DNA of 810 nucleotides from Escherichia coli (GTDB lineage Bacteria > Pseudomonadota > Gammaproteobacteria > Enterobacterales > Enterobacteriaceae): NCBI RefSeq assembly GCF_003334785.1, contig NZ_QOWV01000072.1; one strand, written 5' to 3'. The notes beneath the pieces are model-generated. The model worked only from the letters and a program-made list of their open reading frames with translations. It was not told where the DNA came from and made no database searches. Both the position numbers and the translations under genes were made by a program. Below are positions 1-810 of this stretch, in pieces (positions within the stretch are counted from its first letter, which is position 1; the number at the start of each line of letters is the position of its first letter).

Positions 1-26
1 TGTAGATTCAATCTGTCAATGCAACA
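1..26. repeat. Terminal inverted repeat of IS30 (the end proximal to the transposase 3' end, conventionally IRR), about 26 bp
   Basis: Sequence tgtagattcaatctgtcaatgcaaca at the extreme window start. This matches my recollection of the IS30 inverted repeat (begins TGTAGATTCAAT, 26 bp, imperfect match to the other end). The partner repeat is outside the window, so the inverted-repeat relationship cannot be confirmed from this sequence alone. The transposase stop codon (8-10) lies inside this repeat. Confidence 0.7.
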
Positions 27-810
27 CCCCTTTCAATTATCTCTTTCGGTGTTTTGAACTTCAGTGTCTTTCTCGGTCTGTTGTTTAGCTGAGCAGCAAC
101 CAGATCTAGTTCATGTTGAGTATATTGGGCAAGACATGTCTTTTTAGGAAAGTACTGCCGAATTAGCCCATTTGTGTTCTCATTTGTTCCCCGCTGCCAA
201 GGACTCTGAGGATCGCAGAAGTAAACTTTAACGCCGGTGCTGACAGTAAATTCTAGATGTCTGGCCAGTTCCATTCCTCTGTCCCATGTCAGTGATTTTC
301 TGAGTTCTGACGGTAAACTCAGGAATTTGTCGGTAAGAGCCTGATTTACTGAGACAGAATCTTTGCCCCTGAGTCTAAGGATGATCGTATAACGTGATTT
401 TCGGTCTACAAGTGTGGCTATATGAGAGTTTTTTGTACCTGAGACTAAATCGCCCTCCCAATGCCCCAGAGAGCGTCTGTTATCGATATTTCGGGAACGT
501 TCGTGAATTGGTGTTCCGTTCACTATGTTAATCGTACCTCTTTCGCCTTTGCGGGTATGACGCCTGCCATGGCGAAGGCTATGCGACCGTCGCAGATGCT
601 GTATATTCAGGTGGTGTAGCGCTTCACGGCTACGAAAGTACAGCGTTTTATAAATTGTCTCAGGTGATATTCGCAGCGTTTTTTGACGTGGTTTTGTTCG
701 CCTTAACCATCCTGATATTTGCTCTGGAGACCATTTCATCTCCAGCTTTTCCAGAACAAGCTTTCGCAATGGTAAATTTTGATCCAGTAAGCACGGTTTT
801 GGCCTTTTCG
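8..810 (-). CDS. insI: IS30-family DDE transposase, 5'-partial (N-terminus beyond window end). Stop codon TGA at plus 8-10 is included. About 266 C-terminal codons are present.
   Basis: Six-frame track ORF 8..769 (253 aa plus stop). I translated the minus strand from 810 and the frame stays open for 13 more codons upstream of the track's first codon (K R P K P C L L D Q N L P, then L-R-K-L-V-L-E-K...). The track's 'M' is therefore an internal TTG (Leu) at 767-769, not the real start. Family motifs verified on the sequence: HWEGD (D at plus 449-451, gat on minus), WDRG (D at 281-283, gac on minus), NENTNG (E at 179-181, gag on minus), with exactly 33 residues between the second D and the E. 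The protein C-terminus ...KEIIERGVALTD-stop was confirmed by manual reverse-complement translation of bases 1-60. Gene symbol insI is the E. coli K-12 name for IS30 transposase, assigned from memory. Confidence 0.93.
   Translation of the reverse strand, partial: KRPKPCLLDQNLPLRKLVLEKLEMKWSPEQISGWLRRTKPRQKTLRISPETIYKTLYFRSREALHHLNIQHLRRSHSLRHGRRHTRKGERGTINIVNGTPIHERSRNIDNRRSLGHWEGDLVSGTKNSHIATLVDRKSRYTIILRLRGKDSVSVNQALTDKFLSLPSELRKSLTWDRGMELARHLEFTVSTGVKVYFCDPQSPWQRGTNENTNGLIRQYFPKKTCLAQYTQHELDLVAAQLNNRPRKTLKFKTPKEIIERGVALTD
179..451 (-). other. DDE catalytic core of the transposase (RNase H-like fold), spanning the three predicted catalytic residues
   Basis: Catalytic-candidate codons located directly on the sequence: D in LGHWEGD (plus 449-451), D in LTWDRG (plus 281-283), E in RGTNENTNG (plus 179-181). 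Spacing D-55-D-33-E in the translated protein, with the D(33)E spacing characteristic of the IS30 family. No frameshifts or stops interrupt the domain. Confidence 0.8.

Follow-up and report, generated by a model that had tools for sequence, protein, structure and literature searches.

The window, i.e., the whole stretch of 810 bp of Escherichia coli DNA that was analysed, contains one long open reading frame on the minus strand, which is still open at base 810 and ends with a TGA stop codon at positions 10-8. It is part of the transposase gene of the insertion sequence IS30, and the features at this end of the element are as follows.

1-26, minus strand: right terminal inverted repeat (IRR) of IS30, sense sequence TGTTGCATTGACAGATTGAATCTACA; 23 of 26 positions match the other end, boundary at base 1
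1-7, minus strand: non-coding terminal heptamer ATCTACA (sense), between the stop codon and the tip
8-10, minus strand: TGA stop codon of the transposase; the RefSeq CDS has the same end
8-810, minus strand: 3' portion of the IS30 transposase gene, encoding residues 118-383 of 383; the gene extends past base 810
11-26, minus strand: C-terminal tail inside the IRR, Val-Ala-Leu-Thr-Asp (25-11) plus the wobble base of Gly381 (26)
14-19, minus strand: outward-facing perfect -35 hexamer TTGACA (codons Leu-Thr)
27-43, minus strand: subterminal region adjoining the IRR, coding (…KEIIERG); bases up to 35 lie inside the reported footprint of bp 9-35

The window shows 100% nucleotide identity to annotated IS30. 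Chromosomes and plasmids from 3,795 of the 5,426 complete E. coli genomes contain 8,726 matches in all, and 4,163 records matching at 99% or more carry the RefSeq label "IS30-like element IS30 family transposase". The identification as IS30 in the preliminary description is borne out by this identity to RefSeq-annotated IS30-like elements. All features compared agree with those of IS30 of E. coli (insI transposase; 1,221 bp, 26-bp inverted repeats, 2-bp target duplication), the sole difference being that the window is without the left 411 bp of the element. The window covers two thirds of IS30, from the right end inward, in a canonical copy.

The encoded 266-residue fragment scored 252.3 bits against the NCBIfam equivalog NF033563 (transpos_IS30), which has a cut-off of 80. 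The catalytic triad is formed by D237 (451-449), D293 (283-281) and E327 (181-179), all on the minus strand, with spacings of 55 and 33 residues. This D-55-D-33-E spacing fits the pattern D-(54-61)-D-(33)-E of the IS30 family (PMC2516522). In the full-length protein encoded by the IS30 copy of E. coli ATCC 11775 (locus L001), the Pfam rve domain covers residues 229-320, and the portion encoded beyond the window contains HTH_38 (residues 58-98, E 1e-18) together with a second, weaker match at 6-41. A search of the window for structured RNA at E<=1 revealed no Rfam family on either strand.

Since the window by itself cannot reveal a boundary at base 1, full copies were taken with their flanks from eight chromosomal or plasmid loci and 47 viral-contig loci. 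The complete IS30 of L001 is located at positions 1501-2721 and measures 1,221 bp, as do all of the about 21 full copies. The homology of the flanks stops exactly at TGTAGA.../...TCTACA in more than 10 different insertion contexts, and intact insertions are surrounded by 2-bp target duplications (AC, GC, AG, CC, and CT). A staggered attack with a distance of 2 bp has been described for IS30 (PMC9333248). Because of the shared break point in these contexts and the 2-bp duplications, base 1 of the window is the true tip of the right end. The preliminary description had proposed a comparison of bases 1-26 with the opposite end of the element. In L001, this comparison revealed an inverted repeat in which 23 of the 26 positions are complementary, the exceptions being repeat positions 13, 14, and 20, and the reported length of the IS30 repeats is 26 bp (PMC9333248). 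One might object that a repeat-like match and the position of the stop codon coincide here by chance and that base 1 is merely the cut edge of the window, which does begin at this very base, so that the boundary is not provable from the window alone. However, a coincidence of this kind is practically out of the question, given that over 10 independent genomic contexts break exactly at base 1, with 2-bp duplications, and that the probability of at least 23 matches in 26 in a fixed register is 1.6e-11.

Coding and recognition in the terminal repeat

The 26 bp of the IRR consist of the wobble base of Gly381, five full codons, the stop codon, and seven non-coding bases. Thus, the stop codon lies inside the terminal inverted repeat, as the preliminary description had stated, with TGA at 10-8 and seven bases beyond it. 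The same description regarded all of the ~26 bp as shared between coding and recognition; the overlap is real, but it comprises 19 of the 26 bases, which are either coding or part of the stop codon. The non-coding heptamer belongs to the outermost 11-12 bp, in which the two ends of the element do not differ and which are unchanged in a 76%-identical relative from Edwardsiella. That the stop codon falls within the right repeat is an ordinary, long-described trait of IS30 and its relatives. It is common for transposase genes to stop within the IRR or close to it. The sequence of IS30 dates from the 1980s, and experiments have since dissected its ends, its binding footprint, and its junction promoter; the primary papers defining the ends and the junction promoter Pjunc are those of Dalrymple from 1984 and 1987 and of Szabo from 2010.

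The 26-bp repeats are the sites that are joined and cleaved by the IS30 transposase, with cleavage taking place beside the tip of the joined repeats (PMC9333248). An N-terminal fragment of the transposase protects bp 9-35 of the ends, according to Stalder et al. (1990) as quoted in PMC7780238. This footprint spans the stop codon and the last eight codons of the gene. Sub-terminal sequences modulate IS30 transposition, at least according to the title of ref. 16 in PMC9333248.

The extent to which the encoded peptide also matters can be judged from related proteins. The NCBIfam IS30 profile ends 19 residues short of the C-terminus, and Pfam rve 63 residues short. In an alignment of 17 family members, conservation ends at the motif ...RPRKxLxxxTPxE, which is followed by tails of 4-17 residues without a common sequence. 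The Edwardsiella relative is likewise 1,221 bp long and shows 76% DNA identity overall and 84% protein identity to IS30, whilst its left repeat (IRL) matches that of IS30 in 25 of 26 positions and its IRR in 23 of 26. The changes in its IRR are found only at repeat positions 12, 13, and 20, which are the same as, or adjacent to, the positions where the two repeats of IS30 differ from each other. They amount to one synonymous change, GCA>GCG, and the replacement of Asp by Ser at the last codon. L041, a variant with 96% identity, carries the synonymous GCA>GCG change only. The sample contains three natural IRR variants in total.

For relatives, the ends were determined by an ungapped repeat search and manual reading; an earlier gapped pass had hit flanking repeats or spurious short matches in several loci. 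Members from Rhodococcus (L011) and Enterococcus (L019) as well as loci L015, L053, L065, and L067 yielded no convincing ends and were left out. Among the 13 relatives with convincing ends, seven have the stop codon inside the right repeat, as IS30 does. Judged from these ends, the overlap between stop codon and IRR is common in the IS30 family but not obligatory. The overlapping type is represented by ISCfr4, an ISAba125-like element, ISApl1, ISLpl1, and an IS from a Lactiplantibacillus plantarum plasmid, in which the stop codon lies ~7-14 nt from the presumed tip, a distance that is approximate as the tips of distant relatives were deduced from repeat alignment alone. Relatives of this type share 29-47% protein identity with IS30 and have the inner GTTGCA/GTCGCA motif in common with it. 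In contrast, members from Burkholderia, Vibrio, and Agrobacterium plasmids and from viral contigs (L058-L061) have the same transposase family and the same inner motif, but their stop codon is located 3-35 nt before the repeat, without coding overlap. An even more extreme compaction against the tip has been described for ISLxc2 and ISLxx4 of the IS481 family, where the stop codon lies in the duplicated target site (PMC2516522) and is, therefore, supplied by host target DNA, whereas that of IS30 lies within the element.

The inner repeat motif GTTGCA(C) is kept in relatives with 30-47% protein identity, but it is not read uniformly. It encodes Val-Ala in IS30, ISCfr4, and the ISAba125-like element and Leu-His in ISApl1 and the L. 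plantarum element, which use the other frame across the motif, and it is non-coding in the members with a stop codon 3-35 nt upstream of the IRR. Since the DNA motif is kept while the peptide varies, the repeat seems largely to dictate the tail and not the reverse. We infer that DNA-level roles dominate the constraint on bases 1-26 and that the encoded tail is a non-conserved appendage. It is also conceivable, although very unlikely, that the C-terminal tails in the IS30 family arose repeatedly by extension of the reading frame into the repeat, which would explain why GTTGCA is read in two frames.

This bears on the claim in the preliminary description that the last ~26 bp are under dual constraint. 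The DNA-recognition side of that claim is well supported by the published cleavage and footprint at the repeats, by the repeats of the Edwardsiella element, and by the GTTGCA motif, but the coding side is weak, as the tail is not conserved. In its strict form, the claim would mean that the peptide VALTD is needed for transposase function, with coding and recognition limiting the bases equally. The sequence G-V-A-L-T is indeed kept between IS30 and its 84%-identical relative, where the last residue alone differs, and the close variants carry only synonymous changes. However, conservation of the DNA motif by itself predicts the same pattern. The differing tails of the family members, the translation of GTTGCA in two frames or not at all, and the family profiles that stop well before the C-terminus all speak against a required peptide, and such a truly two-way constraint is distinctly unlikely. 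The preferred reading, i.e., that the DNA prevails, is a modest addition to what was known: the repeat motif is conserved in the family and the encoded tail is not, which reveals which of the two overlapping constraints is the stronger.

The outward -35 hexamer and transcription across the tip

The codons for Leu and Thr in the tail contain TTGACA, a perfect -35 hexamer that faces outward. IS30 transposes by a copy-out-paste-in mechanism. The intermediate is a minicircle or (IS30)2 dimer whose right end meets a left end across a 2-bp spacer, and a strong promoter, Pjunc, has been reported at this IRL-IRR junction (PMC9333248). When the junction was assembled in silico with a 2-bp spacer, it contained TTGACA-N17-TAGATT. 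This pair would constitute Pjunc; the assignment is our own reconstruction, and it fits the published promoter. IS30 is also listed among the insertion sequences whose IRR supplies the -35 for hybrid promoters (PMC9330008; PMC11894529). The outward -35 is, thus, a putative third function in the same bases, which is absent from the preliminary description, although it is only a modest addition. A generic promoter scan of an integrated copy revealed no complete promoter, as expected for a promoter whose -10 is contributed by the opposite end.

At the position equivalent to the IRR hexamer, the IRL has TTGACC in IS30 and TTGATC in the Edwardsiella element, whereas both IRRs have TTGACA. The mismatch between IRR and IRL of IS30 at repeat position 14 is a synonymous change at the wobble position of the Thr codon, and it perfects the hexamer. 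Selection on TTGACA is supported by the fact that the hexamer is perfect in the IRRs while the IRLs differ, together with this synonymous change.

In IS911, IS2, IS21, and IS256, too, a promoter forms once the ends abut in a circle or dimer, the IRR contributing an outward -35 and the IRL a -10 (PMC9330008). These elements differ from IS30 in belonging to other transposase families, and the IS3-family members among them use two frames and programmed frameshifting. In the closer relatives, -35-like hexamers overlap the TGA stop codon: TTGACA in ISApl1 and the L. plantarum IS, TTGAAT in the ISAba125-like element, and TTGAAC in ISCfr4. A second -35-like hexamer, TTGAAT, is also present in the window at 6-11 on the minus strand, where it overlaps the TGA stop codon; the same hexamer has been cited as the outward -35 of ISAba125 (PMC9330008). 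Its partner at a distance of 17 bp in the junction would be ATTGGT, which is a poor -10, and this hexamer is probably not part of Pjunc. It could pair with a host -10 located ~12 bp past the tip.

Transcription from the transposase gene itself may also cross the tip. No intrinsic terminators were predicted on either strand of the element and its near flanks, and 7 bp are too short to hold one, so read-out from the gene into host DNA, as suggested in the preliminary description, is plausible and, on these predictions, possible. It could then be supposed that read-through across the 7-bp tip is the main influence of IS30 on downstream host genes. The lack of terminator-like sites favors this, as does the predicted read-out RNA, which runs on into the flank at some hot-spot sites. 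However, reviews ascribe the outward activation by IS30 to the -35 in the IRR, acting in a hybrid or junction promoter, and describe the strong transposase promoter as only transient, existing in the junction between the repeats (PMC9330008; PMC11894529). A leading role of read-through appears unlikely, and the IRR hexamer is preferred as the source of outward activation.

When the end of the transcript was folded together with hot-spot flanks, the subterminal AAUUGAAAGGGG formed a long stem with CCUUUUUUAAU of the flank in some contexts. The subterminal RNA AGAUAAUUGAAAGGGG (window 27-45, minus strand) can pair with the hot-spot flank (G)CCUUUUUUAAUAU, with the right repeat looped out, for example at positions 1482-1500 of L001 and in the right flank of L031. 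A terminator-like hairpin with the flank was rejected as a general feature, as the duplex energies exceeded those of shuffled flanks in only two of eight contexts. On the opposite strand, IS30 has an antisense promoter at element bases 730-760 according to a review, corresponding to ~462-492 of the window on the plus strand; a simple promoter scan flagged no site in this region. A plus-strand reading frame of 52 codons starts with ATG at position 461 and covers 461-619.

In the overall explanation, which we hold with great confidence, bases 1-26 do three jobs and the DNA-level roles dominate. IS30 is a compact element of 1,221 bp whose single reading frame of 383 amino acids extends into the repeat and ends 7 bp short of the tip. 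The repeat serves as the cis-acting site for the element's own transposase, with the N-terminal HTH contacting its inner part and the catalytic domain the tip, as can be gathered from the literature. The same bases specify the five C-terminal residues and the stop codon. In addition, they carry the outward -35 TTGACA, which would complete a strong promoter driving the transposase gene once a 2-bp spacer links the two ends in a minicircle or (IS30)2 dimer.

The three-way overlap might go beyond compaction and act as a device for functional coupling, although we consider this very unlikely. Transposase bound to the IRR, with its footprint at bp 9-35 over the stop codon, would then block RNA polymerase or ribosomes that are finishing the gene. 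This would reduce read-out, and the end of translation would be tied to the site where the protein acts, which would contribute to a preference for action in cis.

The discovery value of these observations is small, since they concern a known property of a textbook element. They are of use in annotation: the window represents the right end of IS30, and any sequence adjoining it is an insertion junction. Next to a suitable host -10, TTGACA would lead to activation of flanking genes, and a downstream host gene that offers such a -10 at the right distance can be activated.

Insertion sites

Most of the sampled IS30 copies are inserted in transposase genes of the IS3 family (flanks of L001-L008 and L021-L066; e.g., L001 1482-1500 and 2722-2740). 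The hot spot is near-palindromic and reads ...ATATTAAAAAA(A/G)GC(N)AC / IS30 / ...GC(C)TTTTTTTAATAT, and it overlaps an A-rich "A AAA AAG" stretch that is typical of the frameshift windows of IS3-family elements. IS30 is known to prefer nearly palindromic hot spots (PMC9333248). The sequence of the site fits this preference, and the recurrent hits on other insertion sequences are striking.

In two loci, L006 and L007, where the element is located at 501-1721, the 2-bp flanks do not match (GT/AC and AC/GC, respectively). These flanks are re-assorted versions of those of L001 and L005, and the left flank of L006 is the reverse complement of the right flank of L001. This suggests an inversion or recombination between two IS30 copies.

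In the Edwardsiella tarda plasmid pEtSC002-2 (L009), the IS30 relative lies symmetrically between two inverted IS3-family orfA-like copies. These copies of ~300 bp, at about 151-469 and 1630-1947, are ~90% identical to each other, and both end with AAAAAAGGCGAG at the junction.
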